DNA from: Vermamoeba vermiformis
Lineage: Eukaryota
Length of the DNA: 64,000 nt
Assembly: GCA_045837725.1 (NCBI GenBank)
Contig: JBEWZL010000030.1
Coordinates: 372,001-436,000 of the forward strand
Reading direction: 5' to 3'
In this document: one piece after another, positions 6,927-47,223 of the stretch
Layout of the letters: every line of letters begins with the position of its first letter
Position numbering within the stretch: the stretch's first letter is position 1
The notes under the pieces: model-generated
The model's input: only the letters and a program-made list of their open reading frames with translations
Databases searched by the model: none
Told to the model about the DNA's origin: nothing
Program-made: the position numbers and the translations under genes

Positions 6927-7084
6927 AAACATTGTTTGATACAAAAATAAAACTTGTAAATATTTACTGCGAAAACTAGTAATTTTAACAACAAGGGGCT
7001 CTTCTAAGATCTTCTTACGCAATTGAAGATCGGATTCAGCACGGGTTATGATACGAATTATTGGCCCTGTTAGGCCATTGCATA

Positions 7085-8646
7085 TCACTCGTAGTCCATT
7101 CGCAGATCTGTCTCAAGGTGCTCCGTAATAGGCTGAATAGCTTCCATCAAATCTCCGAACAGGTTGGCTGGTAAATTTTGCTTGAATCTAACACCGTTGA
7201 TTTGAATCTGAACTGTTCTTCGTCCTTGAAATTCTTCGTCTGAATCATTTTCTTCATCGTCATCTTCACTGCCACTTCTTTCTTCATTTTCAAGATCGGA
7301 CCCCAAGTTATCAGCGCTAGTCTCGTCTTCCATTTCCGACGATTTCTTTTGCATGAACTTAATCATTTCTTTTGATTTGAGGAATTTTTCAACCTCAACG
7401 AAGGTTTTATCGACAAATGAAGGAGTGAGTTGGAGCGACCGAATTTGTTGGTTCTTGCAAGACTTCAACGAATCTATCTCGAAAGAATATCCAATGAGGT
7501 GCCCTGTGCATTTTGCAATTAGTTTGTATTGCTATTGCGGTGGCCGCAAAGGTGCATTGAACAGTTACCTGAATCGTTGAAGGATAGATCAAAGCCTTCG
7601 CCATCTCTTGCTTCTCGGCGCTATTAATATTTCTATCGTAAGTCCAAACCCTAACCCTCGGAACTTCAAAAAACTACTTTACAGTAATAAGACTTACGTA
7701 TTCAATTTTAAATGATTTCTGTTGTTTGCTTTCCATAAAGGGTATTTCTTTGAAATAATCGCGTAGTTTGATGGCACATAAGGCATATTTAAGTCGTGTC
7801 ACCTGTCACCAAAAAAACGTCAATTTTGGAAGCTCTCAAAGCTACCAGTAATAATGAAATAAATCAGTGCATAGTATACCATTTCTTCCTCGAAAAATTT
7901 CCAGCTATTTTGGGGATCTGAATTCGTTGAGAGAAAGCTGCCGATCTGAGTGCTGTCTATTGGTCCCTTTGTTGAGTAGTATTTATCTTGATGATCAATT
8001 TCAATATAAAAGGAGACATTACTGTGTTGTAAGTCAAAGAACGGATCGTCTTTGTTTTGTTCAATTAATTCCGCAAACTTCGATGGTTCCTTCGTGTTCA
8101 TTATTCCTAACACTTCATTATAAACGTTGATAAATTTAAAGCGATCTTCGAACATTTTTTGAGCAGTTTCAGATTTTTCGTCGCTTGATCCCTTTGTCCT
8201 GCAACATTAATGTCAGAAATTCAAGCTCAAATTAATATTTGAAGAACGAAGTACCGAATAGCACGTTCAGATGATTTGACCGCAGTACCGTCACCTCTGA
8301 TCGTGTAAGTAACATGTCTCTCTCTGCCTTTTTCTTCCCCATGACCGTAGATAGCATAAGAGAGTTCTATTGCCTTATCAACTGTTTTAGCCACCTAAAA
8401 GTTATAGCTCGTTAATAAATTATCGGTTAGGAATTTTTTTCCGCTTACCAGCGCCTTGATCTGCTTACAAGTGCATGCAAGAGCTTGCATTACAATAGTA
8501 TTGGGGCACACTAATACGATATTTTCGATAATTTCTGGAGGGAGAACTTCCTAAGTAATAATGACATTATAAATATCGCGATTAAGAAATTAGGACGTCG
8601 TGATTACCTCAAAAATTTTCCTCTTCTTTGTCGCTCGTTCTTCCAT
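7085..8646 (-). CDS. F-box protein, tandem family copy 1
   Basis: Exon 1 MEERATKKRKIFE, exon 2 F-box-like EVLPPEIIENIVLVCPN..LACTCKQI; conserved RLKxALCA exon; acidic C-terminus shared with paralogs. Confidence 0.8.
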
Positions 8647-8881
8647 GGCATAAATACTGGCTGCCAATAAAAATACAACAATGAACTGCCGACAGCTTGT
8701 GCACCCAATCACAAAATCAAGCAATTTAGTATGGTAAATTTCTAGTTGGACAGTACGCGTGGACCATATACGGAACCGTCATATCATTATACGTCAAAAA
8801 TGAATGACTTGACCGTGGAAGTTCACTCTTTATTTTAAAGATTTTCGTTGGCGCGAAAAATCCAAGACGCGTGACACGTTG

Positions 8882-10756
8882 TCAGTACTCGAAATTAAGG
8901 CCGAGCGGCAGTGTCACGAGTGCCAAAGTGTCCATCAGTCCCGCGAGGTCTTTATTGGACATTTCTCTGTAGGTGTATTGCGTGCCATTCAACTCAATCT
9001 CCACTACTCGGCAACGCTTTTTTTTGTCGCTTTGTTCGTCTTTTTCATTACTATTCTCCTTGCCACACTCCTCTCTAGTACTCTTATCATTCAATTCTTC
9101 GTCTTGCTCGGTATTATTGGCTTTATTTTTGCTCTTACGATCATTCTCGTCCTCGCCACTGCTACTGGTCTTGTTGTAATTGTTCTCTTTTTCATCCTCA
9201 TTTTCACTCCTTGACGAGCTGCTGCTACCTGATTGGTCGACTGACAATTTCTTGACGATACATTTAGATTTTACTTTCGTGCGGATGTAGGCTCCAACGT
9301 TTTTCAACACGTGTTTCAATAACGAAGGTCTATACTGAATCGCTGCATATTCTGTGTCGTATCTAGCGTCCCAGTGACGATCGGTCCAATCGGTTTTTCG
9401 GCCATTTACGTAGCCTTGGAAAGTTTTAGTTCGGGAGACAGATCCACATCCGCACCAGACAGAATTTCGTACCTGTATCAAAGCAATATAATTCCCAACT
9501 ATCATGGCTGATCTCGTCGTTACCCTATAATACTGTTATTTCTTCTGTTGGCCGAGGAAAATAGAATTATATCTTTTTGCTCGATCGTGTTGAACTTACG
9601 CAACGAACGATGACTTTATCACCAAATTCTCGCTTTGTTCGAATTTTCTTGTAAAATTTCTTGACTAAAAGGGCACATAACGAACACTTAAGTCGCTTTG
9701 TCTGAAGATCCGACAAAAAAGTTGATTAGATTTTATCGTTAGTTCTACGAACTATCGTGTATGATGTATTTACCACCAATTCATCTAGATTCCACCAATT
9801 TTCTCGTCTTTTAGTATCAAGATCCGGATCTTCGTCTTCAGATTCGTCTTCCTCAGATGTGATAGTCTTTCCATTGCTTATATCTTCATTCTTATAAGTG
9901 TATCTTATTCGTTTAGTATCAACTTGAACGTCAAATAAGACTTTATCGAGCGTCACCGAGAATAGCAGATGCCATTTGAGTTTGTATTTCCCTTTCCACG
10001 CAATAATAGTTTCTAAGAAAAGTTCCTTTAATTTGGCTTTATCTGTCATATTCATAATATTCAATAGCTTAGAAATGAGTTTATCGACCTTGGCGCGATC
10101 CTCGAGCTTTTGTTGAATTGTTTGAATTTCTCGTAGTCGTCGTCTCGACATCCCCTCTCGCGAACTGCGTTTTTAAAAATTAGTAACATTTTACGTAACA
10201 ACGCGCTTGTTATAACATACTTTCGACTAAATTTTGTCTTTTTAATGGCGCATCCGTTCCCCTTAATGACGTACTCCGCGGTAGTTTTTTCTTTTGAATT
10301 TCCGCTTACTTTAAACAACTGAAAACGAACGATTATGCTTTTCTTGAGTATATTGGATACCTAAATAATTCAGATTAATATCAAAAACACTAAGGCATTA
10401 AGTTGTAATTACCAGCGCATTGATCTGCTTACATGTGCACGCTAAAGACTCCAACGTGATCGTATTCGTGCAATAAAGCAGAATATTTTCGATCATTTCT
10501 GCTGGAAGGAGCTCCTAGCATTAATAATTAATTAATAATCATGATTATTAAAATTAATTCCAACATATCATTTTTTTATTTTACGCAACAGTAATTATCC
10601 TTCGTATTGCAATCCTCGCTAATATTAAAATTGATTTATTTATTTTGGGTATTTTAGGATTAATTAATATCGCTTGTTCAGCAGCTTAGTTCAGATGTGC
10701 ACGCAGTTTACCTGGAACAGCTTCCGTTTCTTCGTGGGTCTAGTATCATCTTCCAT
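8882..10756 (-). CDS. F-box protein, tandem family copy 2
   Basis: MEDDTRPTKKRKLFQ, ELLPAEMIENILL..LACTCKQI, same exon layout as paralogs. Confidence 0.8.
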
Positions 10757-11156
10757 TTTCGAAACTAAAGGTTCGCATATTAAAATAAATTGTGGCTGTC
10801 ACCTTTATGACTAAAAAAAGTTCGATCGTGATCAAAAATCAATTTTATTGCAGGACTGTGGTCAATCAGGAGTTAATTATTATTGACAACTATTGTATCA
10901 TCTTCACACAGACTACGCCTAGAGGTTTGGTGATTGGCTCAAGAATCACCAAAGACTTTTCTGAACAAATTCTTTCAGATGCAATCGACTGAAATTCAGT
11001 CGCGCTTATCTGCAATGTCATAAACAGCTCTTCATGCACTTGTACTTCCATTTACCTTAGTAGGCATATTATGAATAAGTTGTGGTTGTTTTTGCGCGGT
11101 AAACGATAATTGGTGGAGATTCTCCTGACGGAAGTTTAAAGCGATGTTTTCCTTTA

Positions 11157-12991
11157 TTAGTAAGTGAAGTCAAGGCCAAGTGAGTGTGTAACGGGTACTA
11201 CAATGTTCATCAGACCCGCGAACTCATGTTCGGACAATTGTTTGCACGTGCTCTTCGTGCCGTTCAACACAACCTCCAAGGATCTGCGACGCTCATTTTC
11301 ATCTTGTTTGCTGCCAGAGCTACTGTTATCTTCATTATTACTATTGTCTTCGTTATTGCTATCTTCTCTATCATTTTCATCTTCGTCTTCATTACTATTG
11401 TCTTCTGTACTACAACCAGCGGATGCACCACCATTTTTATTTCTTTTTTCGGCCAGATCCGGGTTTATTTTTTTCTTAGTTTTGAGAGATTTCAAGGTAC
11501 TAATATACTTCTCAATCTCGTCGAATATAGGTTTCATTATGGACGGTCTATATTGAATTGTTTCAATGTGTCGATCATCTACAAAATTCCATTGCCGATC
11601 ACTCCAATCAACGTGCATACCAGTTACATAGCCTTAAATGGACATTAGTTTATTGCTATGCGTAATAATAGCGTCATATAATTAAATTGTCAGATGCGAT
11701 CCACTTTTTGACTCGTACCTGTATCGCTGCAATGGAGTTCCCAACCTTCGTTATCAACATCGTCGTTACCCTGTAATATATTTAAGCGTTATTGTTTGCG
11801 CAAAACGAATTTGAAGAGGCACTAGCATTGACTTAAGAAATCGGATGGGGTTTTGAAGGCTGATCTGTCGCACTTACGTATCGAATACTAATAGAATTAT
11901 TTCCTTCGACTCCAAACTCAATTTTTTTGAAAAATTTCTTCACTTTAAGCGCACACAACGCACATTTTAGTCGCTTGATCTGCGATCGGCAAAAAAAGTC
12001 GATTAGAAAGTTATATTCGTCGTATTTAATATCAAATAGATCTTTCATACCAATATATCATCTAGATGGTCCCAATCTTCGCGGGTTTCAGTGTCAAGAT
12101 CCCGATCTTCATCGATTATGTCCTCCGCATCCTTCTTTTTGTGTTTTTTTTTGTTCGAACCGCTGTCCGTATCTTCATTCTTATATAAGTATCCTAATTG
12201 GTGATTATTGACTTTAATTTCGAATAAGGCTTTGTCCAACGCAAACCCGAATAGCTTATCATTTTCATATTTCTTTATAATTTCTTCGAATTTGGCTTTA
12301 TCTGTCATATTCATTATATTTAATAGCCTAGCAACGAGTTTATCGAACTTTGCGCGGTCGTTGAGCTTTTTTTGAATTGTTTGAATTTTTTCTTTAGAGC
12401 TGCCTGGTGAACTGCTGAAAAGTTAGTCGCGTTTATGATTAGTATATATATTTATAACGTGCCTCCACGTATATTTGGAGTTTTTGATGGCATCGCCGTT
12501 GCCTTTAATTGTATACTTTACTGAGGTTTTTTCTTTTACGTGATTCAGATCAAACAACTGAAAACGAACGATTATGCTTTTCTCGAACATATTCGATACC
12601 TAAATAATTTATATAAATAGTTGTAAGCAATAAATCATTTGTTATTGATTACCAGCGCATTGATCTGTTTGCACGTGCACGCCAAGGATTCAAGCGTCGT
12701 GTTAGGGCACTGCAATATTATATTTTCAATAATTTCAGCCGGGAGAACGTCCTTTTAGTAAATACAAATAATTTAATTAGTACAGTCATCTAAAAATTAT
12801 CTAAAATCCCAAATAAATTTGGGTCAATTTTTACAGGCACAATAATTATGCATTCGTTTATAAATGCACGATTTAATTAATTCGGCGCAAAAAGGAATTT
12901 TTCTGGTGCATTCCGGATGTGACAGGTCGAAAGGCCCTTCAATTACCTGGAACAGCTTTCGCTTTTTTGCCGATCTAGTATCTTCTTCCAT
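11157..12991 (-). CDS. F-box protein, tandem family copy 3
   Basis: MEEDTRSAKKRKLFQ, DVLPAEIIENIIL..LACTCKQI, IKRLKCALCA. Confidence 0.8.
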
Positions 12992-13996
12992 AAAGTAATG
13001 TTTAACAAAAATGTCCTTGTGCTGTGGTGCGTTTTTAAACAAAATCAACTTTTGTTGTCTTAACTAGTTAAAGAAGTCTCATGCATGTTGGGAGTATCTA
13101 CAAAGACTGATCACTGTGCCACAGATCCTTGAGGAGACTTCTCAGTGCTTTCAAGTCGTGTACACACCACTCACTTGAGCCTCTAATTGACACAGGTGTA
13201 TGATTGACAGCTGTCACAGGAGAGGCATTGACATGTGATTTTGGTTCAGCAACATTGGTGCCAATTGACTTGGCCAGGTGTTGCTCTGATTTGACAGGTG
13301 TCACACTGTTTCTGTTTACTCCATTTTCATACTTGATGGGCTTGTCTTTGACACGTGTCTTTTTGTTGACATACAATTGCATGCTTACTCAGACTGGAGT
13401 GCTGAGACGATTGATTTTCACTGAATATGACCACCAATTGACATGTCACATCACACACTTCAGTTTGACACCGCTGATGACCCTGGTAGAGTGTGGCTAT
13501 TGGGGCAATGACAAAGGTAATTTTGTATCACGACCAAATTTGGCAACAACTCTTAACTGAACACAAAGGCCACCCCAATGACCTTCTATTCACTTTCCTA
13601 ATAGGAGAGGCAAGTCACCTGATGAGCTGCCAAACCCTGCTCTTCAATAGCAAATTACTCACTTTGGACAAATGAAGTTCACCATGAAGAACTTCCCGTA
13701 CAGCTATCAGTCGAGTGCAGGCAGTGACACTTTGACATGTGTCACTGAATACGACAGCATGCAGTGTTATGACCCACTGATGACACTTGTCATTTTCGGA
13801 TATCTGATGGATCAGTTTGTGACAAGCGTCAAAACCAATCAAGCACTCAAGGCTGCAACTGATCATGTGACTGACCAGGAAGAGTATTATTTGGTCATCA
13901 CTGCATTCCAATATGCCACCAATACAACTCCAACATGCAACCCCCCTGTGAAGTATCACCAACATGGAGACCCACTACCAATCTTATTGATGTAAG

Positions 13997-14835
13997 TTAT
14001 ATTAAAAATGTAAAGTTTACAGTTATCAGGAAAGGTTTGTTTCTATTGGCCAGCTCACTTCCCAGTGCCGAGTCAAAATAGACAGGTTCAAGAATATCCA
14101 GCAACTGATCCAAATGTTCATCAGACAATTCTTTGTACACATATTCACCATTGTTTAAAACAATCCTAAGTGTTCTATCAGGATATCTGTCATTATTTCC
14201 GGAATATTCTTCTTCATCATTGCTGTGATAGTCATCAGACCTATTCGCCACAAAGTTAAAATCAGAACTAATTCTTTTAAAAGAATATTGTTGCAGTTGC
14301 TACCAGCTTATATCCAACTTACTTAGGTCTATTATTCAGTTGTGTCAACTTCAGTTGTGCAAACTTAAGTTGTGCCAACTTCAAAGTTTGATTCCATCCA
14401 GTGACTTCATTGAAGATATGTTCAATCAGTGCAGATTGAAATTGCTGCTGATTATGATATTTTAAAGAATTTCGATGAATATCATCTTGAAAGAATTCAC
14501 AACGAGTGATCACAAGCCCTTAAATATCATATTAGACAAATCAAATATCATTATTTTAATATACCTGAATCATGGCACTCAATTTCCCAACCATTTCCCT
14601 CACTGGAGTACTGGTAATGTAATGTGTTATAACAGTCTAAACATTACTATTAGAAGCAAATCATGCTTACGTTTTTGATAACTATGCTTTTCTTTGCATT
14701 GGGAAGCGGTGGTATGTTCTCGAAGAACTTTTTTATCTCAAAGGCACATAAAATACATTTTGCTCGCTTGATCTACAAGTAAAAATTAGAGTGGTATCGA
14801 AATATTTGAGTATTTGTACCATATTGTCGTTCATT
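13997..14835 (-). pseudogene. F-box family copy 4, 3' half (separated from its 5' half by the CACTA element)
   Basis: IKRAKCILCAFEIKKFF exon and family C-terminus; removing the element restores AWRK-MNDNM across the ATT duplication. Confidence 0.8.
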
Positions 14836-14871
14836 CACTACCAATTTTTATCTCGCAAATCTCGTTTGAGA
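14836..14871 (+). repeat. Left TIR CACTACCAATTTTTATCTCGCAAATCTCGTTTGAGA
   Basis: Matches the reverse complement of 28541-28576 at 33/36 positions. Confidence 0.95.
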
Positions 14872-14926
14872 AATAATCGCTAGTGAAGCGAGTCTCTTGA
14901 GAATGTCATCTCAATTTGAATGTGAT

Positions 14927-15085
14927 TATTCACAGCATCTCGGTTGGTAAAAATTCTCAAACTGAATATGAGTATTCCCAACATCTCAGTTGGGAAAAAT
15001 TGTCAATCACTATATGAGTATTCACCACATCTCTGTTGGCAATAAATCTCAAACTCTATGCGATTATTCACAAAATCTCAGATGA
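14927..15085 (+). repeat. Subterminal tandem repeat, 46-bp period, ~3.4 copies
   Basis: TATTC...ATCTC-G-TTGG units start at 14927, 14973, 15019 and 15065. Confidence 0.9.
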
Positions 15086-15145
15086 ATGAACTCATTGTAT
15101 CTCAGTAACAAATAATAATTGTAGCGTTTATTTTAATTGAATGAT

Positions 15146-16200
15146 CTAATAAAGGGAGTTATTGTCTACTTCAGTTGTTGATTGAAAGAAGTTGATGTGT
15201 GGCTGCGATGATCCAATTTTCTGTTTCTTTGTTGGAGGTTCCTCCTGCAATAATCCAATTTTGTGTTTCTTTGTTGGAGGTTCCTCCTGTTTACAGTTCA
15301 AAAGCTTGTATGACTATCATAAACTTACTTGTTGAATTTTAGGCTTCGACGGACTCTTTCGCTTTTGAAATTCACCCTTTTTAATTTGTTATTATAGTAC
15401 GAACTAAGTTGTATACATACGTATTCAGACAGTTCGAGCACTCGTTTCCTGATCTGTTGTATTATTAGCATTGTACTTTCAAACTCATAAATACCATTAT
15501 TTCAGCAAGTTCGATATCAGACTCAGTTGGGTTGGTCTTTGTCCAATTTCGTACTTGAAGGATCTTTTGAATATGGCCATCTTCTTCGCCTTCCTCTATT
15601 TGGTCATTATCTGCGAAGTATTGTTGCACAGCCAAGTCTATTCTGTCATTAAAAGCCTTTTGCTTCGATGTTCGAATGTATTCTTTTAGCTAATCTTAAA
15701 TGAGCCAAATAATAACACTTATTGCATATTACCAATACTGCTGCAGCTTCTAATTTGCCTTGATCAGGGGAGTCGAGCGACATCACTGGCGTTTCAATAT
15801 TTAAAGCAGTTGCAGCCAGCTCCTCCAATTCATCCTCGGTAAATTTCTTTTTATTTTTCCATGCCTCAGTTGCAGCATTATGCAGTTTTTTCTAGCATAA
15901 AGTTATTTACGTAACTAAATAAAGGAATATTCCTACCACATCCTCAGCGCTCAAGCTCTTTTTAGCTTGGTTGGGACTTTGGATTTTGCCAGATATTTTT
16001 AATAATAAAGTAGTGTTTGTGGACACTCCTTTTTTAAGTGTATCCAAGTCTTTAACAAAGTTTTGTTGCATTTGCTTGAATTCAAGGATGTGTTTCATTA
16101 CGTCCACTTGTGGTGAAGTGGGTTTTTGGGAAGTGCTACCACCTGTACTGCGAGCTCCAGAACTTGCGCTATTAGGCTTTTGTTTATTTGTGTTGCTCAT
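15146..16200 (-). CDS. CACTA accessory gene: coiled-coil protein with a duplicated NLS-like motif (EEPPTKKxKIG x2); possible TnpA-like role
   Basis: Exons join in frame via GT-AG introns from ATG 16200 to TAG 15146; 42-bp internal duplication; no clear family. Confidence 0.65.
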
Positions 16201-16210
16201 ACTTTAATGT

Positions 16211-19200
16211 CTACAAAATAATGTTGTCGTTTCGCAAAAAACTTAAGTCGTGCTCTAAGTGCCCAACATAGGTTTTGCACCACATACAATACTGCTGGTT
16301 ACAACTGCGGCAATGCCATGCATACATATAGAATCGTCGAGTGCATACGCAGCAATTGGGACGTAAATCAGTTGGCTCTCCATCGGCAAGAGTTTGGCAC
16401 TTGTCTGCCATTCTAACCATTACATTTTTGACCCAGTCAAACCATTTAACTCCACGATAATCTGCTTCATTTTGCAAATCATGCAACATTTCTTCAAGTG
16501 AGTATTCAACATTTTTGGCATCAGCGTACCGTACGAACAGCTCTGGTAAACGGAATTTTGGCAAGTAGTTGCAGGATAGCACTACTTGATTGCCAACAGC
16601 TTGAAGCTCAACAGCTCCTTGTGTAGCTACTATAGCAAGCTGCCCTGGACGTAAAGTGCTGGTTGGAACTGTTGATGCAGATTGACTTCCTCCGGTAACA
16701 TTGAATTCGGAGATGAAGAGATGTACACTGCCCCATTCGCATTGTTGCTTATGTTTAAAAAGTATTTGTAAGCGCATGGTTGCTAGAAAATCTTATTAGA
16801 ACAAGTGCAAGTAAAACCGATGAAACTTACGGTCACCATTTCATACAAGCGATCGCCATTAACAATTGAGTATACACAGTACTTGCGTTGATACAGTGGC
16901 AATTTGTACAGCAAGTCATCTTTGAGTTTAAACCATTTTGGCAGTATATCGTCTAAAGATTGCCAATCGAACTCAAATTGCTGCCGCCCTGAAGCAGTTA
17001 AGTACTTATCTGGATGTAAGTAACCATACAGCCTGTACATCGTTTAGTTTAAAATATGCATATTACTAGTTAGAACACTTACTGACAGGCAAGCAATGCC
17101 ACCGTTCTCGATGAATCAATAATTGCAATTCCATTAGTGTTGCATATATCAGATAGATCATTTTCGAATGATGTACTGTTGGGGTTTAGCAAAGTGCCGT
17201 ATTGTTGAAGAGGCAATGCAATGTGAGTCCTTGTATTTAGCCACAATTCCCAAAGCAACTCAGGATATATGGTTTTATCAGCGTTTGGCAAGACGACTTT
17301 GTAGCCGTGGGTGCACAGCTTGACGGCAAACTTCTTGCGTTTTCCAGACATGAGATGAACAACGATTGTTCGTTCTAATTCCAGATCAGTAGGACTTTCT
17401 AATAAGAAGAAGCTCACCTTTTGTTAACCGGGATAATAAAAAGCAAACGATGTCACCAGCCGATTCAATTACTTGTTGTCCGGTGGTGTACATTGACAGA
17501 AACAGTTTGATGTTGTTGTCATGTAGTGCAAGCACAGCTGCATCAAGATTATGAATATATAGTGAAATCTTTCGACCCATCATGAAATCCCACGTTTGAA
17601 GTGCTCCATCATAGTCAGCGAAATTAATTTCTGTAAAATTGTTATCGCATTGAATTGAATTATTATAATATTACCGAACAGAGGTTGTTTGATCCATGGT
17701 AGCACAGTTGCACGATTATCCTTAAAGTTAAGAATTTCTAGTGCGTTAATAAAGAATGCAGCCGTTGGGTTCGAGTATTCAGTTATCAGCTTGGGTGTCA
17801 ATACTGAGCTATCAAGCAAGCACCTTTGTTGTAGCTGGCCAATTCCGGTTATAAAATTGCTTTTTGAGGTATTAATCTCTTTGGTATGTTCCTCGTACAA
17901 TTTTTCTTCAACCTTTTGGTAATTAATAATAATTATCGTATGACTTCGAAACTTACCGATACCTGTTTTGTAGCTGTAATAACACCGACAGGCTTGGCTG
18001 CATTATTGGAATATGCTTGTTGAGCATTCAATAAATCTGCGGTATTATCGTCATATTGACCTAATTGAGAGTCGAACAAGTCAAAGCTTAATGGGCTTGG
18101 ATTCTCCCCGGGTGATGCATCGAGCGCACTATTATGATTGACACCAATTTCATTCGGAGATGTCAGCGAGACACCAAATTGAGGCACAGAGTTGAGGGTG
18201 GGTTGAACTACCTCGATGTGCCCTCCAGAATTGACAAGAAATTGTCCCAAGCCTTGTTGTTTTGGCTTTTCTGAGTCATTCTTTGGTTGCTTGTCAGTTG
18301 ACTGATCGCTCAAGGCGATCTCTTCTATTTCGTCAACTTTGCGCTTCCTGTTAGAGCGCACCAGAGTCGAAGGAGTACGGAGACTTTTCTCTTTCGGTGT
18401 TTCATTATTGTGGTTTGCACCAAAGGTCACTTTGATCTCATTCTCTAACTCGGTTGTGAGTAATTTTGCCCTCGTGATAAATTGGTCTTCACCATTGTCC
18501 AAAGCTCGAATGGATTCCAGGCATCGTGTCAAAGCAATCTCCAATTGATTCAACTTTTCCGCTGTGATCTTGCCGAAGGAAATATTGAACAGGCGATACG
18601 AAAAGGGATCGCTTTCACCCATTAGGTATTCTAACTCATCAACGCCTTTCTGCACCAAGTCCGAACAAATTTTGTTCCATACAGAGGTAACACGTAAAAA
18701 ATATTCTAATTAACTTGTATCAGAAAATGTAAAATACGGACAGTAAACTTACTCTCATTGCTAATTATCTGATCACCGAACTGATCTTTAAAATCTTGCC
18801 ACAGCTTTTGTTTAGACCTTACTTTCTGTTGACGGTACCTAAATTAAGGTAAATATAAAGCGTACAACAATTGTGGATCCAAACTTACTTTTGCCTCTGT
18901 GAAAAGTGAAGTATCATGTTGCATTTGTCCACGAAGGTCATTTTCGTAATTGTGGTGCTCAGCTGCGTGCACTTGAATGCTAGTAGTTGCACGTCTTCAA
19001 GCGTGTCCTCTGGCTTGTGCACAACGAACGCTTGCCAATTATCATAGACAGGATTATTAAGATCCTTCGCTGCATAGTAGCGTTGAATTCCGTCGACCAA
19101 GTATAATTTTTCAACACTAAGCGCAAATTGAACTGAATCCCGAACAGCACTCTTTGAAGGCCTATTAATTTGTTAATATGCGTACGAGTAAGCTAGGTAT

Positions 19201-19525
19201 TCATACTTCCATAGCAAAAGAGGACATATATTCACCACTCCGTCTCGCTGTAATGAGTTTTGAATTGTTGTAACGGCAGCGAGCTTTTTCCCCCGTGTAT
19301 AGCAATGTGGTGGCAAAAGCTGTAATTCTGAGATACTGACTAATTTATTTTCGATATCAGTGTACCCTAAACGCCTACAAATTATTATAAGATTAAAATT
19401 ACCGTAATTAATTAATTAAATAATTAGTCATACTGTAAAAAACCTGGAGCATTATCCACAGCAGCAGTGTTGTCTTTGATTGTACTTTTTTTCTCGTTGG
19501 TATTATTCGAATTACGCCCGCTCAT
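16211..19525 (-). CDS. CACTA cargo gene: N-terminal ParB/Srx-like domain, low-complexity linker, degenerate JmjC/cupin-like segment, C-terminal ZZ-like zinc finger
   Basis: Spliced ORF gives LVSISELQL..IQNSLQRDG..PLLL..YLVDGIQRYYAAKDL (ParB-N pattern); TLRPGQLAIV..VGNQVVLSCNYLP; CCVC..WHCRSC..YCMWC..H..H. One frame junction near 16.7-16.8 kb is unresolved. Confidence 0.6.
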
Positions 19526-19625
19526 TGTGGTTCAAAGTGCAACGGTTTCCAATAATTGGGGGTAACACTATTGGTGCTCAGACAAGATGATAAATGTGAA
19601 TTAACGGTAATCGTGCTAATCAAAC

Positions 19626-19666
19626 GAAATCTCAAAATCGGCACGGCGTGCCGATTTTGAGATTTC
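19626..19666. promoter_or_regulatory. Perfect 41-bp palindrome (20-bp arms, 1-nt spacer) in the element's divergent promoter region
   Basis: GAAATCTCAAAATCGGCACG-G-CGTGCCGATTTTGAGATTTC, about 100 bp upstream of ATG 19525. Confidence 0.85.
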
Positions 19667-19799
19667 ATGTCACGTGCTTTTAACCTCGTCCAATTTTATT
19701 AATAAGTCTAGTTTACACGCGATATCTTGACCACCAATGGTCGGGGTATAATATCTCTATGCAATTCATACGTGACGTGCATTGGCCTGCTTGCATGTC

Positions 19800-22700
19800 G
19801 CTCATGGACAAGGCTCAACTTGATGGCGCGATCGGATGTGCCAAACGCTTCTAATTTCCTGGTAAGTGTTATTATTTTATTACAATTAAATAATTTAACC
19901 AGTGGAAAATATCGTTTCAACACTCAAGTTGGAAAAAATTAAATTAAAGTTTTTTAAAATGGATTGAGGTTTGTGTTCGCTTGTAGATCAAATTGATGTA
20001 TATTATTGCCTTAATAATATTTTACCGTAATTTTTATTAAATAAACAGATAATAATCAAGCGATCGTGAAGCCAAGCGATGAAAGACGAAGGACAAATCA
20101 GAGGTAAGTCCTTTCATATTGTTAAATTGAATTAAAATAATGTTTTAAAACTGTTCAATTAGATATTACAAGCTAGCGAAGATACATCCGGTTCGTCTAC
20201 GTGCTGCGTTGAGCCTGCTTCAGCAATTAATGCGCGGATCGATCGCGCTTAAAGTAAGTCAATCAAGTGTGTATTTATTAATATAACATTGTTTATTTTA
20301 TAGTACACCCAAATTAGCGAATTGGTGACACGATCTATCGCGTTATTACTCGCTGCTTAATTGTTGTTGATTGTGCGTCGACCGCGCTAAAAGTAAGTAT
20401 AATATGATTAATTTTAATATTCTATTTTTTTCTAATGGATTGATAGTCAGCTCGTTCGCGCTCATTGACGCGACGCAAGAATTGTTAACTTCAGTGTTGC
20501 TGTTCACCTGGTAAAATACATTCATTACTATTATTACACTGTACTAATACAAGTTTTATACAGGTATGTCGTTGCTCGCAAACGGATGTGGCACGCGATC
20601 GATCAGACGTGTAGCGAACAGCGTTTAAAAAGATCAAACAATCACGTAAGTAAAGCAATTATTGATTATTAATTTATAATTTTTTGTACAGTTGTTAACT
20701 TTGTTGACGCAGGGAACCCTGCAATAAAATACGTCAGTTTCGATCGGGCATTGTACGTTAATAAAACGCATCGATTGCGTTAATGGTAACTACACCTTAT
20801 TTAATGCATCATTTTAAACGTACTGATATTATTATTTTAATAGTTTTAAACTGTCCTAGTGAATTCACGAATCTGGTGCACGAGATCTGACAGCGTGAAA
20901 ATTTGGGTAAGAGACGAATTACCTAGTACGTAAGTAACATAACGTAGTTTGCGAACCCAAATACTAATATTTTATTACGACAGATTGGCTGAAATAGCCA
21001 ATAGTACGAAGAAATGCGATCCGCAACATGAGCGGTTCGCACGCATCAGTTTTCATTTAAACGCAACAGATCGACCACAAGGGTCGAAATATTTATTATC
21101 CGTTGAACATAAGCTGATAGTGACGCGCCACGGTTGCAACGGCCGTTCAGCGCGAGTTATTTGGGTGAGTTAATCTTCGGTCCATGAGCAGATGCAGTCA
21201 AGTTGGATTATCGACCACAAGGGTCGATTTATTGTTCATTGATAAATAAGTACGCGCCAAACGACACCCAGCGTCGTTCCAGCACGAGACTCAGCGCGCC
21301 GATCTAACCTCATCTGAATCTCGGTGCAGTGACCGAGATTGTTCAAGGTAATATTTTTTATATTATAGTTCAACAAATTAAAATACATTTATATTTATTA
21401 TATGGCGAAACTTAGCCATTAGTTTTAAATTTTATAACTAAATTTACTGGTCGAGCTTAGTGCTCGAGTCAAATTAAACTATTTATTATTATTTATACAA
21501 TATTTTAATTCTAATTTTAAAGTCTACGGCGTTAATGGATCAAGGCCTGGATCCGTTGGATGTCGCGATATAAAGTCTGCTCGGCTTTATTTTGGACCCC
21601 AGTAAGTACGCAAATCCGTTTATGACATCTACTAACGCTTATTGAAATCAGAAAAGAACGATCCGCAACTTGAGCGGATTCATGTCTCAAAATTCTTTTG
21701 AAGTACTTCGGTAAGTCCATTTATTATCAATAGGTATATACCTATAGAATAACGCATAGACAATCAGTGCCCCCGTACATTGCGTTTAATCGCCGATCTA
21801 CGAGCCGCACTGATCCAAGTTGTACTCCAGGCTACTGTACGTATCGCGATTTATTATAGCTCAAACGGAGTAATTTAACGTAATTTAAAACTCTAATTTA
21901 GGTGAGCTTGATGGTACGGTAGACGCGCGCCAGGCTCACATGATTGCTGCAATGGGTCCGAGCAATCACGGCAACTTTCAGGGCCCGCTTTACATGTACC
22001 AGACCTACAGCACCATCAACGCGAAGCGTCTCTCGCTCGTCAGTACGTAATAATTAATTCGTGTGTAGGGAGTGCTGATCTTTTGTCGATAGATGAGCTG
22101 GCAGGTGGCACGCGTCCGCACACCTCTGGGCCACTTAATCTGAACAAATCTCGGCTTAACATCACCGAGGACCGCATTGTGTTCATGTTCAGTGCCTTCA
22201 ATGTCAAGTACCGTACGTATCGCACTGACAATATTGTCGCTGACTCGCTGCTCCAAAGCGATGCAGAACAGCGCCGAGCTGTCTCTCTCCACCAACGATC
22301 TCATGGAAGAGGACTACGTGGCGTAGCCTGCACGTCGCATCACAGCCCAACTACCAGCACTGGCCTGTCATTCGTCCGCGGCTGTGCCGTCACTTCACCG
22401 CAGTCCCTCAACAACTCGCGCTCCAGCAGTGCCGTCACTTCACCTGAGCCTCGCGCCTGGGCAGTGTCATCGACAGCACCACTGCCCTTTGTGCAGTTTC
22501 ATTAATTCGCTCACGGTCCACGCATGCTCTGTGGGCTCACCATCACTGTCCTTGCTGTCACTGCTGTTCGGAGTGTTGCTGTTCGATTGAACACTTCGTG
22601 CAATCCAATAACATGCAGCACACAGACCCGTCATCACCACAGTCAGTGCCGAGAGTTGCTCGTCATACCCAATTACAAAATTTCTCATTGAGTCATTGAT

Positions 22701-23580
22701 CGCGCTGTAACTAAGTATAGACCAACTTAAATTATATGCACAATATATTGATTCATGTTTTGTTCATAGGAAAAGTGTCTGTGTGGACTTAGCGGATCTG
22801 CAACTACGGATGTAGCGCGCGTTAACTGTCATCAGCAGTAACGCTGTTTAACAGGGTAAGCAAATAATTCGCGAATGCGTGCTAACTAATAACTGTTTAA
22901 TATATTAGCATCGTTAAAAGAGTGTTTGTTATGCAGTGGAGCCGGATCGAGCGCAACGCATCTCGATCCCTAAAATTTTACATTGCGCACCGATCGCTAT
23001 AAAAGTAAGTAAAATGCGACGCATCTTCAATGGACAATATCCTGATACTATTTTTACTAGGAACAGTGTCAACCGTGACGACAACAGATCTGATCGAGCG
23101 ACTGTTTCCCCACTCTATCACGTGAGTAAGCTCATTCAGCAGTTACGCCACGTTATTGATTAGGGCACTGCGGTTTACTCTCAGTTGCAACACTGGCACG
23201 TCATTCACGTGGCCTGTTGTTAAATCCGGATCACACACTGGCAAACCAGGTGCATGAACAATAAAGTAGGTCATGAGCTCAAAGAGTACACCATGCTTGT
23301 AACAAAAATAAATAAAGAGGTTTGAGAACAGTAATTTTGCGTCGGCGGACTAAATTTTATGTAAATTTTTGAAAGATCGACCACAACTGGTCAATTTATT
23401 ATTTTTTTTTTCAATTACTATTTCAACAACTATTTACAGCTGGTTGTAGCACGTTACGGCCTCAAACCGCGAGTTATTGTGGATTTACTTGATCAACCGA
23501 TTGCACGTGTAAATTGCTGCAGCTAATCAACAATTCGACCACAGCGTTCACTCACTCACACGTGTGTTAGTTATTTTACT
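19800..23580 (+). other. Multi-exon-like, mostly non-coding region inside the CACTA (long spliced leader/lncRNA or decayed captured exons)
   Basis: About a dozen GTAAG-type donors with AT-rich introns; CpG-rich exons; exon 20304-20392 has stops in all three frames. Confidence 0.5.
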
Positions 23581-25725
23581 ATGGACAACTTAATTGCTGC
23601 AAGCATTCAACTTGGTAAGGAGCGGATGCGTTGGTTTATATCGTATTAATTTTAATTTCAAGCAACAAAAAATGCAAACCAAGAGTCGGACTGGTATCGA
23701 TATATTTACGATACTGATTCACAGCCATCTGAAACAAATCCAAATCCAAGCCAAACACCCGAAATTACTTTAACCCGTAAGTACCTCAATTAATTTAATA
23801 ATTAATAAATAATAATATTGATTTTGAGCAGGAAAGGACACAATCACGGTGCTAGATGATTTTGCTTGGAAGATTGAGCACTTTTTACGCTTAAAATTTG
23901 CTCTATGGCTCGATGATGTAATACTTTTCACTTTCACAAGGTAAGTCAAAGTCTTTGCAAATAATACGTATATTAAATTGCTCATTCAGGCAATGCTTTG
24001 TTTTAAATTCATTACGCACTCACTAAAAATTATTATCAGTGCTTACAACAACAAAGCGGGCTGAAGTGCAACGCTTGTTGGATTCGTGGAAGGTTTCTTA
24101 TCCATTTGAAGAATTGACACTGCGAGCTCAGACCAACGCAGTCGACTGCGGCTTGCACGTAATTTCATTTATTCGTGCAGCTGTTCAGTCCGAAGCCACA
24201 CTTCCTTCCTTTGATACTGTTTGTAAACGTGATGAATTATTCGACTTGGCGGTTAATTCAGTTTCTACAGTAAGTAGAATAATCATTTTAATACACGAGC
24301 TAATTGTTTAATAAAGCAATTAAAAAATCAAGTGCAAGGAATAGTCAATCGATTTGCACAAAGCGACTTCAAAATTTTACTGTGCGTGACAAAGAAAGAA
24401 GAGCTGCGCAGCATGTCCCTGCAACTAGGTACTCTAAAGAATTATTACAACCATTTATGCGAAAAATTCAACGTTGAGTTGCGAAAAAACTATAAACGCA
24501 TTGATCATCTGCTTGACGCTATAGTTCTGCTTCATCAGAAACATGGCGCTGACTGTACTGACGAATTTTTATAATAAATAGTCAATACTGAATGCATACC
24601 ACTCAATAATATTCGAACAATGACAACGTCACACAATTTGCTCGTTATTCAACGTCTTTCGCAACAATACAAGACAGAATTTTTCAACAACATATACAAG
24701 AAGAGCATCAAATGGAAGCAGTCTTATAACGATTTTCATGGAGGAGGCTTTCCGCAACCCAAGCTTTACGCAGCCTTTTCCAAAGATGTTACAAACTTGG
24801 AATATTATGTTCCCCACACAAAGCACGGCAAGCCACTATTAGTATATGAAGCACAGCCGTATACTGATCTACCAGTTTTACAAATCTTTGAGCAACTGCT
24901 AAACTCAATGGGCTATAGTGGCTTCAATTATGTTACGATTCTATTGTATGCTGGAGATCGCTCGCATATCAATGCTCACCGTGATGAAGAACAAATTAAT
25001 GGCTTCGAAACTTTTGATGATGTAATAGCTACTTTTGTTTTTGGAGTAGAGAGGTAACTACTATGATAATACACCGAGCCATGCAATGATACCGTTATAG
25101 GGAACTTAAGCTGTACTATGATTTAAAGGATGGCAAATTTATTCGCATTCATAACGGAGATAACTCATTGTATATTATGCAAGGAATTCAACGCATAACA
25201 GAGCACGAGAAGGCAGCTGCTACTGGTATAAGTTACAGCGTGATATTTCGCTGCTTACAGCCCTTTGCTGGCAATGTCGAGGACCCCAACAGATTTAACG
25301 AACAAGTTTTTATTGATTGGTCCAATCTCCTGATTCCAATGGCTTGGACCTTATTGCCCGATATGACCGACCTGCACGTAGGTTCTATCATCAATCTTAG
25401 AGAGTTCAACAAGCGCCGGTTACACCCAACTCAGATGTCTTCTCTGTCACTGCGGCGAGGTCAAGCTTCATCCATCGTCCTCTATTCAGACCAAAATATT
25501 GTTAGTCCGTGTGGCAACAAAATATGGTTCATTGGCTACGATACTGTTGATAAAAGAAACAAAGCATTGAATAATTGCCTTTTGGCCGTAAACAAAGGTT
25601 CGTTATCAATTCCTGTCTACAAAAGAATTGAAAAAAAAGGCCGAATGTTTTTAGGCAATTTTTATGTTCATAGTGCTATCGAATTAGCACAAAAGATGTA
25701 TTTTTTATTGGTTAAAAATGAATAA
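23581..25725 (+). CDS. CACTA cargo gene: degenerate Ulp1/C48-like segment + AlkB-family 2OG-Fe(II) dioxygenase + SRA/YDG-like domain
   Basis: WLDDVILF and QTNAVDCGLHV (Ulp1); FNYVTILLY..HRDEE..IATFVFGVER..SLYIMQG..EH..YSVIFR (ALKBH2/3 pattern; intron 25054-25100 joins in frame); VG..R..LH..SIVL..G..NKAL..C..PV..GNFYV (SRA). The link between the Ulp1 exons and AlkB is inferred. Confidence 0.75.
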
Positions 25726-28420
25726 AGACAAGTATTACTGTTCTACATGCCGCCGAGGCTTTCCGTTTCCAGGAGAGCTGCAGCGACATCTCAATACTTC
25801 CATTCACGAGACAGAAGAAGGCAAAAATACCCCCGAAAATACATACAACTGCACTGAACACAAATGAAATGCACTAGAAGACACGATCGGTAAGATACTT
25901 TGAAAATTATTTAATAAATAATAATTTTATTTGTAGAAATGGAATATCAAAGTGGTACACCCACAACTGGTATGAAAAAAAAGGTTGCATCCTTCATTTT
26001 ATAATTTTCTGCAGATTTGAGTTTCGTTGACGAAGAAATTGCTGAACCGACCTCCATCATCACAGATAATCTCTCACCTTGGGCTCTTATTCATTGGTTT
26101 TGCATTCAAAAAAGTATTCCTGCTTCAGACGAGCTACAGCTGCTTAGGCTACTATCCAAACCTGTGTTTCACCTGAATTCAGCTCCACCGTCAATTGCTG
26201 ATATACGAAGTGAGCTACAACGCTCAATTCCTCAAATATCGTACAAGTCCATTGTTTGCCGAAAGAAAGGGAAGAAAGAAAGCAACGTCAAACCTTTGAA
26301 CATTTTAAACAATACTGGATACCAAGTTGTGAATGTTTACAGTATTCGAGACCACCTTGAACTATACCTAAAAGATCCAGTTCTTAGTGGCAGCTTGATC
26401 TTTAAGCCAGTTAGCAATGCAGTTGGATACTCTTCGTTTGTTTCGGGACAGTACTTTCACAATATCGTAGAGCTGATCCCTATTGGTGCACTGCCGCTAT
26501 GCCGTAAGTATCGTAAACACATACAAATTGCTAAAGACATCAGTTGAATTGTACTGGGATGACACCGGCATCTCAAGCAAGAAGAAGTGTGGACCAATAT
26601 GGCTCGGGATCAGCAACAGTGATTCATCAATAAAGCGAACTCCTGAATCAAGAATGCTCATTGCTGTCATGCCGCCAGAAACAGATCTTAGTCCCGTTTT
26701 AGAAGAACTAGTTTCACAAATTCAACAATTGACGGAAGTCGATTTTTTTTGCGCAAGTATGAATTCTGTGGTCCGATTTCATTGCTTGCTTTCGTTATTG
26801 CTAGGTGATTCTCCTGCTAGCAATTATGTGATAGGTATGAGCAATGGCATTTCAAAACTATTCCTAACAAGATTGCAGGTTTACGTGCACCAACGTGTAA
26901 TCAACCATGTCGCATTTGCCACACAGAGGCTACACAACTTGGATTGATTCCTGAGGTTGACCTTCATACAGTTGAAGGCGATCTATCAGAACAAGTAAAA
27001 TGGCCTCAAAGGACGAAAAGAGCAATGATGGATCTGATTAACGAAGCTCACATTGGTATTTTACCAAATATGGAAGCAGAGCTCAAAGCCAAAGGTTTAG
27101 CTTACTATACGGTAAAGTCGTATTCATTGGTTCTCATTTTGCATAACGTAATTCTATTTACAGAGCCCTTTGTGGGAAGTCGATTTCATCAATTTGTTTA
27201 CGCAGTCACCGTACTGTTTACTTCATAACGAATTTCTTGGATTGGTTCCCATCCACATGGACTTGACCTTTGCCGCTATTAAGAGTAAAGAAAATGGCAT
27301 CACTATTATGAAAGAACTTGGAGAACGAGTTGCCAAATTCCCTGCTTTTAGTCCGCTACCAAAGCTAAACGATGATATTGAACTTCGAAAAGGATGGGAT
27401 GGCAAATCGTATACCTCATTTTATCGAATGGCAGTAATTGTATTTCGAGACTTTCTTAAAAATGAAGAGCTGCGATGTTGGTAAGTAAGCCAATTTATTA
27501 TTTTACTATCATTAGCTCACAAAACCAGGCTGTTACATTGCCGATACCTGAGATACTTACATAAATCTCTGCTATCTGAAAGACAGTTGCAAAACCTGAT
27601 GGCAACGTACTGGGAATGGAAGAAATTGTTCATACAATGCTATAAATCACCAGAGCCTTCAAAACAAAAGATAAGTATTAAAAATATGCAATTCTTGAAT
27701 TTGCATGTCGGCGAACATTGGTATTCTACGATCAAAATGTTCGGTGTCCCAGCAGAGTACAGCACGCAACACTGGGAAGCCTTACACCAATCCGTCAAAA
27801 GAAAAGAAAAGAAGTCTAACCATCTTCAGCCCTCACTAGACATCTCCCGTATGATAATAGAAGAGACTTCAATGCAAAGAGCGTTGGGAACAATTGAAGT
27901 ACGTAATTGTCTTTGATTAAACCTTTCATCAATTGCTTTAGGATTTTTGTGCATTAAATACCACAATCAATCGAACGGTAATTGGGTCAATTACAGTTTA
28001 CAATAAGCAAAAGAACAAAGCGGAAGATATTCGGCAATTTCTTCAGGAACAACTTTTGCAAGGTACCTATGCCTAAATGATTACTTAAATTACTAATAAG
28101 ATTCAGATGACGTACAGTTTCAATTGTACAATTCGGCGCAGATAGGTTCGACAAAGTTAAGCAAAGGGGACTACTTCAGCACTGGACACAAAGAAAACAA
28201 AAGATTTGGGGAGGTAAACGCCATCGTCTCTGTTGCCAATGTAGTTTATATTATTGGATATCTTTACAAGCACGACTATCGTTCTCTTGATGCAAAAAGT
28301 GAGATGTACACTGTCAGCAAAACTGACTCGTGGGCATTATTTACTGCTAATGAAGCCAATCCAGAACAATTTGTATCAATCGATGACAACCTAACTCTAG
28401 TAAACTTTTTTTTCCGTTGA
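25718..28420 (+). CDS. CACTA/Plavaka-like DDE transposase with N-terminal C2H2 zinc finger
   Basis: YYCSTCRRGFPFPGELQRHLNTSIH; LYWDD..GPIWLGISN; LLGDSPA; PCRIC; PYCLLHNEFLG; NLH..H..IKMFG..YSTQHWEALHQ. Confidence 0.88.
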
Positions 28421-28540
28421 TTCGAAATGTCTCTACAAATTTATCGAGATTTATCTCTTGTGATCGCAATCAATAGAGGCGAAACGAGATTAATCTCAGT
28501 TGTGAGCTACTATTGTTAGTTTCACTGATTGAGACTTCAG

Positions 28541-28576
28541 TCACAACCGAGATTTGCGAGATTAAAATTGGTAGTG
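28541..28576 (-). repeat. Right TIR of the CACTA element
   Basis: TCACAACCGAGATTTGCGAGATTAAAATTGGTAGTG followed by ATT. Confidence 0.95.
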
Positions 28577-29477
28577 ATTTTGCGCCAAGCAAGTTTTTGA
28601 TTTTGTTCATGGTGTACATCAGTAGTAAAATAATCTGGTTCTTCAGTTGTAAATGTGTATGCCAAAAACTGATCATCAACATGGACTTTGATTGAAAAGT
28701 CCTCAAATGAAAACTTGACTAGTGGATCAGACCAATTTTCGACCATTTTTTTCGTTAATTCTGCTGTATCTGTCATTTGCAATATTCCTAATAATTTCTT
28801 GGAAACTTCATCGAATTCATAGGTGTTCTCAAGCTTTCCAAAGATATTGTTACTTTGCTCATTGCGTGTACGCCGGGTCCTTAAATTACATTATATTTAG
28901 TTGTTACTTCATAGATAAATAATATTATTATTTTGCGTACGAGTCTTTATTGCAGCAACCTGAACTTGTTTCTCCTTTTCGAAAGGCCTTGAACCACCAT
29001 TTATAGCTTTCGCGCTCATCGTTCCAAGACTCCTTGCTCCATTCGATCATAATGTAAATTTTCCTATCAAACGGCTTCCACGCCTAATTTAATTGTTACG
29101 GACCATTCCAAAGTAATCTGTATTGTTATATAATATTTTTTGATTTTTAAATAATTCAATTTCAACGGAATAAATTTTACAACAAGCGACCTTCTTACGT
29201 ACTAACATGTTGATTATTTTACATGTGCTTGCCAAAGATTCGAGGGTCCGCGTATCGTGGCATAATTCATAGATTTTGTCAAAAATCGCTAATGGGAACA
29301 TCTCCTAAATTAATAAAATATTATTAGAATAATCATCATATTTTCTTATTATTTTAATTGTTTAATTGGGCTCTTTCGAGATGACAGGATCTGCCGTCTT
29401 ACCTGAACGGGAATTTCGTCTGATTCATTAGTGATAATTTTGTCTGATTCATTAGTGATAATTTCGTCTTTCTCCAT
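28577..29477 (-). pseudogene. F-box family copy 4, 5' half
   Basis: MEKDEII..., EMFPLAIFDKIYELC..LESLASTCKII (F-box); MTDTAEL exon runs into the TIR. Confidence 0.8.
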
Positions 29478-29711
29478 CAGTATTATATAATTTAATGGCA
29501 GCTTCGTTCTTCCAACGTTTTTGGCAAGCCTCAAATTTTTTTGCCGCCAAGCCGTTGCATTGCGTAGGGATCCTTTCTTAAGGACAGGTCATAAAAACGG
29601 TACACAAAGCCTTGGTCTAAAGTCTGGTTTGCAACCTGCCCCGCCGATCTGATTGATCTGTCAACGGAACAATAAAATGGCTGGCAGGAATAGATTAAAT
29701 TGTATTATTAA

Positions 29712-33980: not shown

Positions 33981-33996
33981 CGTATAAAATACAAAC

Positions 33997-34557: not shown

Positions 34558-34712
34558 GGTAGCCGCCATTTTACTACTTACAAATTTCTAGATTTGTTTA
34601 AAACATAAATTCGAATAGATCGACAACGAGCAATGCAACCAATATTCGATCAGGTCTATGAAACATCGCATGCTAGATTCGAACGATATCCGAACGGATA
34701 CAACACAACGTA

Positions 34713-34913
34713 TTGCCAAACAACCCGATAGTATGGGCAACGGACGGATCCAAACGAGGTGAAGTTGCAACCACGGCAGTGGTGTCAGATCAAGCCACGT
34801 ACAAACCCCGAATACCCGAACAACAGTCAATTGCAAGAGCAGAGGCATACGAAATCCAAATAAACTTAGTCAACAATAGGAACATCAATATAATATCTGA
34901 CTCTACAAATTAA
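34713..34913 (+). mobile_element. RNase HI fragment of a non-LTR retrotransposon (remnant)
   Basis: WATDGSK...QSIARAE...NIISDS matches the RNase H D-E-D motif order; truncated. Confidence 0.65.
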
Positions 34914-47180: not shown

Positions 47181-47223
47181 TTATTAATTCCTCTTATATA
47201 TTAAATAAATCGCTAATTTTACA

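Follow-up and report, generated by a model that had tools for sequence, protein, structure and literature searches.

The question raised by this locus is what a ParB/sulfiredoxin (Srx)-like domain, glimpsed in an intron-containing gene of a DNA transposon, is doing in the nucleus of an amoeba, and whether it acts on the DNA of its element as bacterial ParB clamps do. The gene lies in a 64,000-nucleotide stretch of Vermamoeba vermiformis DNA (contig JBEWZL010000030.1, positions 372,001–436,000; the whole stretch is called the window here, and coordinates refer to it). We find that it is mobile cargo of an intact CACTA/EnSpm transposon and that a ParB/Srx fold is supported for the protein family to which its product belongs. 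Our preferred reading of its function, held tentatively at a probability of roughly 45%, is that it encodes a self-targeting multidomain chromatin protein that counters silencing or tunes the expression of the element. The element, the gene and the exons that matter most to the argument are as follows:

14836–28576, unstranded: intact CACTA/EnSpm DNA transposon, 13,741 bp, bearing terminal inverted repeats (TIRs) plus an ATT target duplication
14836–15135, unstranded: left end, with terminal repeat, subterminal ATCTC/GAGAT repeats and a 46-bp tandem repeat (14909–15092)
28277–28576, unstranded: right end, with terminal repeat and subterminal ATCTC/GAGAT repeats
16211–19525, minus strand: accessory gene, 10 predicted exons, 949 amino acids (aa), spliced model ending in a single stop; laid out as ParB-fold domain, helical region, low-complexity linker, conserved alpha/beta segment, JmjC-like segment without metal ligands, and Cys/His zinc finger
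19434–19525, minus strand: exon 1, start codon (ATG at 19525) and basic/polar leader
19207–19374, minus strand: exon 2, first half of the predicted ParB fold, with Arg58 and, by alignment to plasmid ParB, Box I Ser71 and Gly76
18889–19161, minus strand: exon 3, Box II GxxR (Gly111, Arg114) and a degenerate Box III (Ser155 for Asn)
16211–17032, minus strand: exons 9 and 10, JmjC-like segment without the HxD/E and distal His ligands, then a B-box-like zinc finger

The TIRs of the element begin CACTA and are identical at 19 of 20 nucleotides, its ends read CACTA..TAGTG with ATT on each side, and when the element is taken out and its flanks are closed up, the interrupted gene, a member of a host tandem family, regains its reading frame. 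These termini and the 3-bp duplication are those of EnSpm elements, which are recognized by CAC..GTG ends and a 3-bp target duplication, and they do not match the fungal PlavakaA/B termini, TGT..ACA or CATCA..TGATG (PMC12730594). The ATCTC/GAGAT 5-mer occurs nine times in the left 300 bp and seven times in the right 300 bp; the interior averages 0.62 copies over the same length. The observed/expected CpG ratio is 1.05 in the intact element and 0.19 in an old copy, in which 8 of 13 aligned CpGs have changed to TG or CA, and by this contrast the host appears to methylate its repeats. Only one other copy of the accessory gene was found in the genome, and it is degraded. Because the element around the gene is intact, its ends match and its insertion into a host gene is marked by a target duplication, the gene is mobile cargo and not a domesticated host gene; a preliminary description of this DNA had inferred that the domain is domesticated, which is not supported, and had placed it in a eukaryotic DNA transposon, which is. 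The host genes around the insertion form a tandem family of short minus-strand genes (7000–14835 and 28577–36800), one copy of which received the element. Just to the left, 13000–14600 is CpG-depleted (observed/expected 0.26), as an old repeat after deamination would look, and contains a CACTA-like 10-mer at 13973.

The first three exons of the accessory gene are separated by GT-AG introns, 59 and 45 nt long and 69–85% A+T, whose removal leaves one open frame, as described earlier, and every motif quoted in that description is recovered, all in exons 2 and 3. Beyond exon 3, seven further exons lead down to the stop at 16211; the gene extent given before was right for the N-terminal exons and overlooked the C-terminal 770 aa. 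Eight of the nine introns are 43–59 nt long and the last is 83 nt (acceptor 16748), a junction that is uncertain because the closer acceptor at 16783 is out of frame and only the 83-nt intron keeps the frame. The 10-exon structure is thus a predicted gene model, with introns backed by conservation. A scan of metagenome contigs gave one confirmed homologue among 293 pattern matches (L036), which is 39.6% identical to the window protein over 285 aa and has introns 1–4 at the same positions and in the same phases (2, 2, 2, 1) with different lengths (52, 67, 46 and 48 nt), and introns 1 and 2 are common to two paralogous families in the same genome. When 1.84 billion proteins were searched with exons 2–3 read across intron 2 (E ≤ 0.001), four matches were returned: three are short unnamed homologues of 43–49% identity, one of which reads through intron 2 while two start in its A+T-rich tail, and the fourth (P0005), a repetitive Sec16 protein, was dropped as an artefact. 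Given the conserved positions and phases in the metagenome homologue, introns 1 and 2 of the paralogues and the way the database proteins run through or start within intron 2, the predicted introns are more than chance. Word-index protein searches gave no match, so that no full-length annotated homologue was obtained, and three raw RNA runs yielded 24, 23 and 17 reads over 20 kb, almost every one of them partial and none across a joint; with no positive control, they are uninformative on expression.

It could be argued that the window copy no longer does anything and is decaying as a passenger, since it has lost the Box III Asn and the JmjC ligands, has an odd last intron, and the one other copy found is degraded. 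A 949-aa frame that crosses 10 exons without an internal stop, introns conserved at 40% protein identity, and intact element ends argue against decay, and we consider this reading very improbable.

Does the N-terminus have a ParB/Srx fold? The window exons match no ParB family, either in a Pfam search of 26 frames or with exons 2–3 read across intron 2, the PF02195 profile finds no candidate in the whole genome, and the window sequence alone aligns to a plasmid ParB profile at hhalign E 0.03. The corresponding frame of a paralogue at another transposase locus of this genome (C235) matches a single Pfam family, PF02195 (E 0.0083), and also TIGR00180 (E 2.1e-4), SerK and Noc, and all five of its PHROG matches are ParB-like; all of its profile matches lie below curated cut-offs (16.6 bits versus 26.3 for PF02195, 21.1 versus 58.45 for TIGR00180). 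Nearest to the window gene is the metagenome homologue L036, which matches a ParB PHROG at E 0.011. Language-model features placed the C235 frame at 0.97 (27 of 30 matches in the ParB_N set, with ParB_N making up 12% of the top cluster) and the sequence P0002 at 0.94. The plasmid ParB set was chosen without use of the window-like subfamily, which scored 28.1 against it compared with 12.6 ± 2.5 (maximum 21.4) for 60 column shuffles. The window-like and C235-type subfamilies align to each other at hhalign E 3.4e-9, and all seven family sequences together match ParB with 94% probability (E 1.5e-7), a value to which the sequence that served to select the ParB set contributes.

A first structure model built from three sequences was useless (predicted local distance difference test, pLDDT, 35). 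An AlphaFold2 model of the C235 frame, made from eight eukaryote-type rows only, reached pLDDT 74.4, and all 10 of its Foldseek matches at E ≤ 0.001 are ParB-N, ParB, PadC or Noc. Compared with 48,161 chains, its top eight matches are all ParB/Srx proteins (Z 11.0–7.9, root-mean-square deviation [rmsd] 2.6–3.8 Å over 79–93 residues), among them sulfiredoxin, PadC, pNOB8 ParB, KorB, SerK, Atu1540 and SbnI, and the next row has Z 5.0. The Box II GxxR is present in all seven family members, and the Box I Gly in all five that cover Box I, preceded by Arg in three and Lys in two. The ParB/Srx fold is thus supported for the family, as modelled on the C235 paralogue, and the window protein is tied to it via alignment. 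The identity proposed in the preliminary description therefore stands at the level of the family; the window protein alone is too divergent for a profile match, and the match made by its C235 paralogue is a sub-threshold one.

The transposase of the element has five other loci in the genome, and two kinds of these, C235 and C83/C11 (identity between the C83 and C11 loci, 99.5%), contain a diverged counterpart of the accessory gene, laid out alike (989 and 994 aa), with introns 1 and 2 at the window positions, a similar small gene downstream and an upstream hairpin. The window protein and its C83 paralogue are 21% identical over ~1050 columns (E 1e-16), and no same-plan gene was detected around the remaining transposase loci, C126 and C78. 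Domain order is the same in these three CACTA-type families, and a fourth, much more distant gene, found by a JmjC search, has the same order by weaker evidence:

G000:C260 ~24500–28100 (L062, L063, L054), minus strand: intron-rich gene with a Cys/His finger, a ParB-like exon, an intact JmjC domain and a zinc finger

Its ParB-like exon matches a ParB PHROG at E 0.0022, and its JmjC domain has the HxD and distal His and matches Pfam JmjC at E 2.3e-4 on one exon. No close viral or phage relative was found. We also observed that the C235 element (~73600–102200) lies between long perfect inverted repeats and is apparently nested in a larger element, and that a frame that by eye resembles TET/JBP lies ~4 kb from the C260 gene, with two long frames (668 and 645 aa) downstream.

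Toward the C-terminus, residues ~690–860 are colinear with the intact C260 JmjC domain (hhalign P 0.0038 over 133 columns; rank 2 of 1002 in a hidden Markov model [HMM] test), and by these weak statistics they look like a JmjC domain without its metal; the HxD/E...H iron ligands, which the C260 gene has, are absent in all three CACTA-family proteins. At the very end, the Cys/His finger resembles a B-box, and the finger of a paralogue matches Pfam zf-B_box at E 0.023. A likeness of residues ~500–650 to N6/N4 DNA methyltransferases was noticed by eye and found no support in Pfam, PHROG, NCBIfam or the local HMMs.

If the fold is that of ParB, does it work as a ParB clamp? In MxParB, R54, R95, N127, S68 and G73 act in nucleotide binding and Q52 and E93 in hydrolysis (PMC13229309). 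When window residues are placed on MxParB by motif through the plasmid ParB alignment, the window protein appears to keep Arg58, Ser71, Gly76 and Arg114 at binding-residue positions and to have Tyr56 and Ile112, not Gln and Glu, at the positions for hydrolysis of cytidine triphosphate (CTP). The Box III Asn is Ser155 in the window protein and is kept in six of the seven family members, and no member has ENxxR. Among orphan ParB folds, a degenerate Box III is usual and nucleotide preference is unpredictable, and 11 of 28 purified ParB-fold proteins bound any nucleoside triphosphate (NTP), some of them ATP or GTP (10.1101/2025.10.10.680097). Residues 180–300, which follow the fold and where a helix-turn-helix or dimerisation domain would be looked for, are conserved and match no family. 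A nucleotide-binding dimerisation module is plausible on these grounds. A private, parS-like array of palindromes was not found in the four regions examined (the window element and three others), where each palindrome family has at most 2–3 copies.

One palindrome was tried as parS and rejected: a 17-bp gapped palindrome (21071 and 21211) proved to be part of a subtelomeric repeat that marks contig ends. It has 69 exact copies in the genome, mostly within ~20 kb of contig ends (reversed control, 0), and one contig that bears the repeat has telomere repeats at its start. Of 20 regions of 10 kb taken at or next to clusters of this motif, none contains a ParB gene, and neither the C235 nor the C83 locus has the motif.

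Because the CTP-hydrolysis residues and Box III are missing and no parS-like array is present, a ParB-type sliding, CTP-hydrolysing clamp is unlikely, and the earlier suggestion of "clamping or spreading on element DNA" is weakened by these points and by the Asn to Ser change. The fuller form of that idea, in which a CTP-gated clamp of the ParB/KorB style would load at the palindrome of the element, spread, and carry the JmjC-like module along DNA, gains something from a fold closest to PadC, ParB, KorB and Noc, from the four mapped binding residues (PMC13229309), and from one strong upstream palindrome in each of three families. It must nonetheless accommodate Tyr56 and Ile112, a Box III without its Glu and Arg in 7/7 members and without its Asn in the window protein, the lack of a repeated palindrome family and of a helix-turn-helix family match, and the modest share of ParB-fold proteins that bind any NTP (10.1101/2025.10.10.680097), and we judge it improbable. 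Also improbable is its extension to a nucleotide-gated clamp fused to JmjC that would load at its own palindrome, spread, and erase (C260 type) or mask (window type) repressive histone methylation; if true, a bacterial-style spreading machine would have been turned into a locus-specific epigenetic eraser.

The upstream palindrome is one of the candidate sites at which the protein could meet its element:

19626–19666, unstranded: perfect 20-bp inverted repeat ~100 nt upstream of the start codon, a candidate operator or promoter hairpin

A hairpin lies 60–150 nt before the start in all three families (z −4.9, −3.6 and −3.5), and each carries a GAAATYTC-type motif that is present only twice per element. 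The subterminal repeats are the other candidate; they occur at both ends and are family-specific (ATCTC in the window element, ATCAC in C83), and the subterminal 5-mer also occurs inside the upstream palindrome. Plant En/Spm requires a second protein besides its transposase. These facts speak for a TnpA-like transposition helper that would bind the subterminal repeats and pair the ends for the transposase through nucleotide-dependent ParB dimerisation, with the C-terminal part tethering it to chromatin. Such a helper would leave unexplained both the intact JmjC domain of the C260 gene and the reported spread of a similar red-algal gene, PAG3, across unrelated transposase families (10.1101/2025.02.11.637652), and we think this role rather unlikely.

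The remainder of the element holds further cargo, the transposase and a non-coding region:

15330–16200, minus strand: second small intron-containing gene directly downstream of the accessory gene, with no Pfam match
19700–23600, plus strand: non-coding middle region, partly captured host DNA
24027–24571, plus strand: Ulp1-like (C48) protease-like exons, Pfam Peptidase_C48 E 0.053, below cut-off
24578–25725, plus strand: exons resembling an AlkB-like 2-oxoglutarate (2OG)-Fe(II) dioxygenase, with an HxD motif seen by eye and conserved in C235
25750–28420, plus strand: putative intron-containing EnSpm/CMC-type transposase, start approximate; of the CxxC and H-x3/4-H motifs that mark CMC-type DDE transposases, CxxC was seen directly

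In the C235 and C83 families, reading frames that by eye resemble the small downstream gene occupy the corresponding position. The Ulp1-like counterpart in C235 is also below cut-off (Peptidase_C48 E 0.14), the AlkB-like exons have no Pfam match in the window or in C235, and one of the five other transposase loci matches Pfam Transposase_21 at E 0.067. In the middle region, the subtelomeric repeat (~21060–21390) is 70–75% identical to many contig-end repeats, and a captured host gene fragment (21905–22493) is 87% identical to G000:C239 596040–596656. The repeat unit (21060–21390) contains donor- and acceptor-like splice sites, and ~15 short GC- and CpG-rich blocks at 19830–23400 (plus strand), with intron-like spacers of 40–60 nt, look like a multi-exon non-coding transcript, since outside the captured gene fragment they cannot be spliced into a long frame. 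No Rfam family was matched.

The AlkB-like gene in this cassette and the TET/JBP-like frame ~4 kb from the C260 gene bear on another possibility, by analogy with phage thymine dioxygenases, which depend on a ParB partner: the ParB domain could be an activator or scaffold for the dioxygenase cargo of the element, with vestigial nucleotide binding. In phages, ParB proteins activate the dioxygenases that belong with them, and their NTP residues can be mutated without loss of this activity (PMC13229309). The dioxygenase family here is a different one, however, and both dioxygenase names were given by eye, so this arrangement also seems improbable.

We return to the preferred reading, a self-targeting chromatin protein. 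Here the ParB fold would bind nucleotide and dimerise without a CTP-hydrolysis clamp cycle and, with the helical region, would bring the protein to element DNA, either at the upstream palindrome or at the subterminal repeats. Methylated histones would be engaged by the zinc finger and the JmjC-like module, which would be enzymatic in the C260-type gene and in the window protein would read or shield without catalysis. Together with the AlkB-like and Ulp1-like cargo, such a protein might keep the element unsilenced or tune its expression. This reading is backed by the domain order shared by three CACTA families (and, more weakly, by the C260 gene), with the fold evidence and the retained GxxR and Box I; by neighboring cargo that is dioxygenase-like and SUMO-protease-like in a host that apparently methylates repeats; and by red-algal PAG3, which has the same ParB plus 2OG-oxygenase plan and for which self-modification was proposed (10.1101/2025.02.11.637652).

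Several observations weigh against it. Neither transposon ends nor a transposase were found for the C260 gene, and that gene is CpG-depleted (observed/expected 0.33), which misfits effective self-protection. The subterminal repeats and the upstream palindrome are candidate binding sites, and the AlkB-like and Ulp1-like names rest on motifs and sub-threshold matches. The JmjC-like part of the window protein has no Pfam or PDB match, its comparison with host JmjC domains is not significant (hhalign P 0.15), and one of 1000 shuffles scored as high as the real C260 sequence in the HMM test.

Elsewhere in the window, a clathrin heavy chain is recognized by eye at 609–4374, and a multi-copy membrane-protein-like gene family occupies 30700–33100 and 42600–54700 in direct and inverted orientation. 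Identical 152-bp direct repeats (50957–51108 and 52143–52294) surround a 324-aa frame, possibly a small element like those with long terminal repeats, and the minus strand carries an ankyrin-repeat-like gene (57540–58847) and a leucine-rich-repeat gene (55768–56685).

How does the accessory gene compare with known systems? By the fold modelled on the C235 paralogue, it is close to orphan ParB-CTPase-fold proteins of mobile elements (PF02195; PadC, pNOB8 ParB-N, KorB and Noc; Z 9.6–10.3, rmsd 2.6–2.8 Å over 89–93 residues), with which it shares Box I and GxxR, a degenerate Box III and fusion to unrelated domains (10.1101/2025.10.10.680097); it differs in being eukaryotic, intron-containing and in a cut-and-paste transposon, with no ParA partner seen and no parS array. 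Sulfiredoxin, SerK and SbnI have the same fold (Z 11.0, 9.1 and 7.9, respectively). The catalytic Cys of Srx follows the Box II Gly, a position that is Ile in the window protein, which is moreover a 949-aa multidomain transposon protein. The ParB activators of phage thymine dioxygenases likewise link a ParB fold to a DNA-modifying 2OG dioxygenase, and their NTP residues may be dispensable (PMC13229309), but they are separate small proteins, whereas in the window protein, which belongs to a eukaryotic element, the ParB domain and a JmjC-like module are parts of one chain. In chlorophytes and chytrids, ParB-type helix-turn-helix domains are fused to methylases (PMC4738411).

We found no ParB–JmjC fusion in the literature covered, outside which most subscription papers lie, and nothing relevant on ParB, JmjC and transposons beyond the available part of the red-algal preprint (10.1101/2025.02.11.637652). 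That ParB-like domains are mainly prokaryotic or phage, as the preliminary description had it, is true in general (10.1101/2025.10.10.680097), but EnSpm/Plavaka elements of eukaryotes have already been described with cargo that pairs ParB with a 2OG oxygenase (10.1101/2025.02.11.637652). Red-algal PAG3 has an N-terminal ParB-like domain and a putative 2OG oxygenase, assigned at HHpred E 0.29 and 0.016, respectively, and lies beside inverted repeats in Plavaka (EnSpm/CACTA) elements (10.1101/2025.02.11.637652). Like it, the window gene is an accessory gene of a large EnSpm-type element, with an N-terminal ParB-like domain, then a domain of 2OG-oxygenase type, and an adjoining inverted repeat; in the window family the ParB part of this plan is present and the oxygenase part is only suggestive. 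The window gene differs in its host, in having a single upstream hairpin and not tandem arrays, in an oxygenase part that is JmjC-like and without metal ligands, in an added C-terminal zinc finger, and in cassette partners that are Ulp1-like and AlkB-like here and N6-methylase and SET there (a comparison by description).

The VANC proteins of plant VANDAL transposons are reportedly transposon-encoded anti-silencing proteins that bind their own element. Their likeness to the window protein would be one of inferred role only, and no sequence relation is expected; if the anti-silencing model is true, the window family would be a second, unrelated example beside them and a tractable test of the role of a ParB fold in a nucleus. 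Relative to PAG3, the evidence for a ParB fold in eukaryotic transposon cargo is much firmer here than the published HHpred E 0.29 (10.1101/2025.02.11.637652), and such cargo is extended to another eukaryotic lineage, in which the JmjC-type C-terminus is found in intact and ligand-less forms within one genome.

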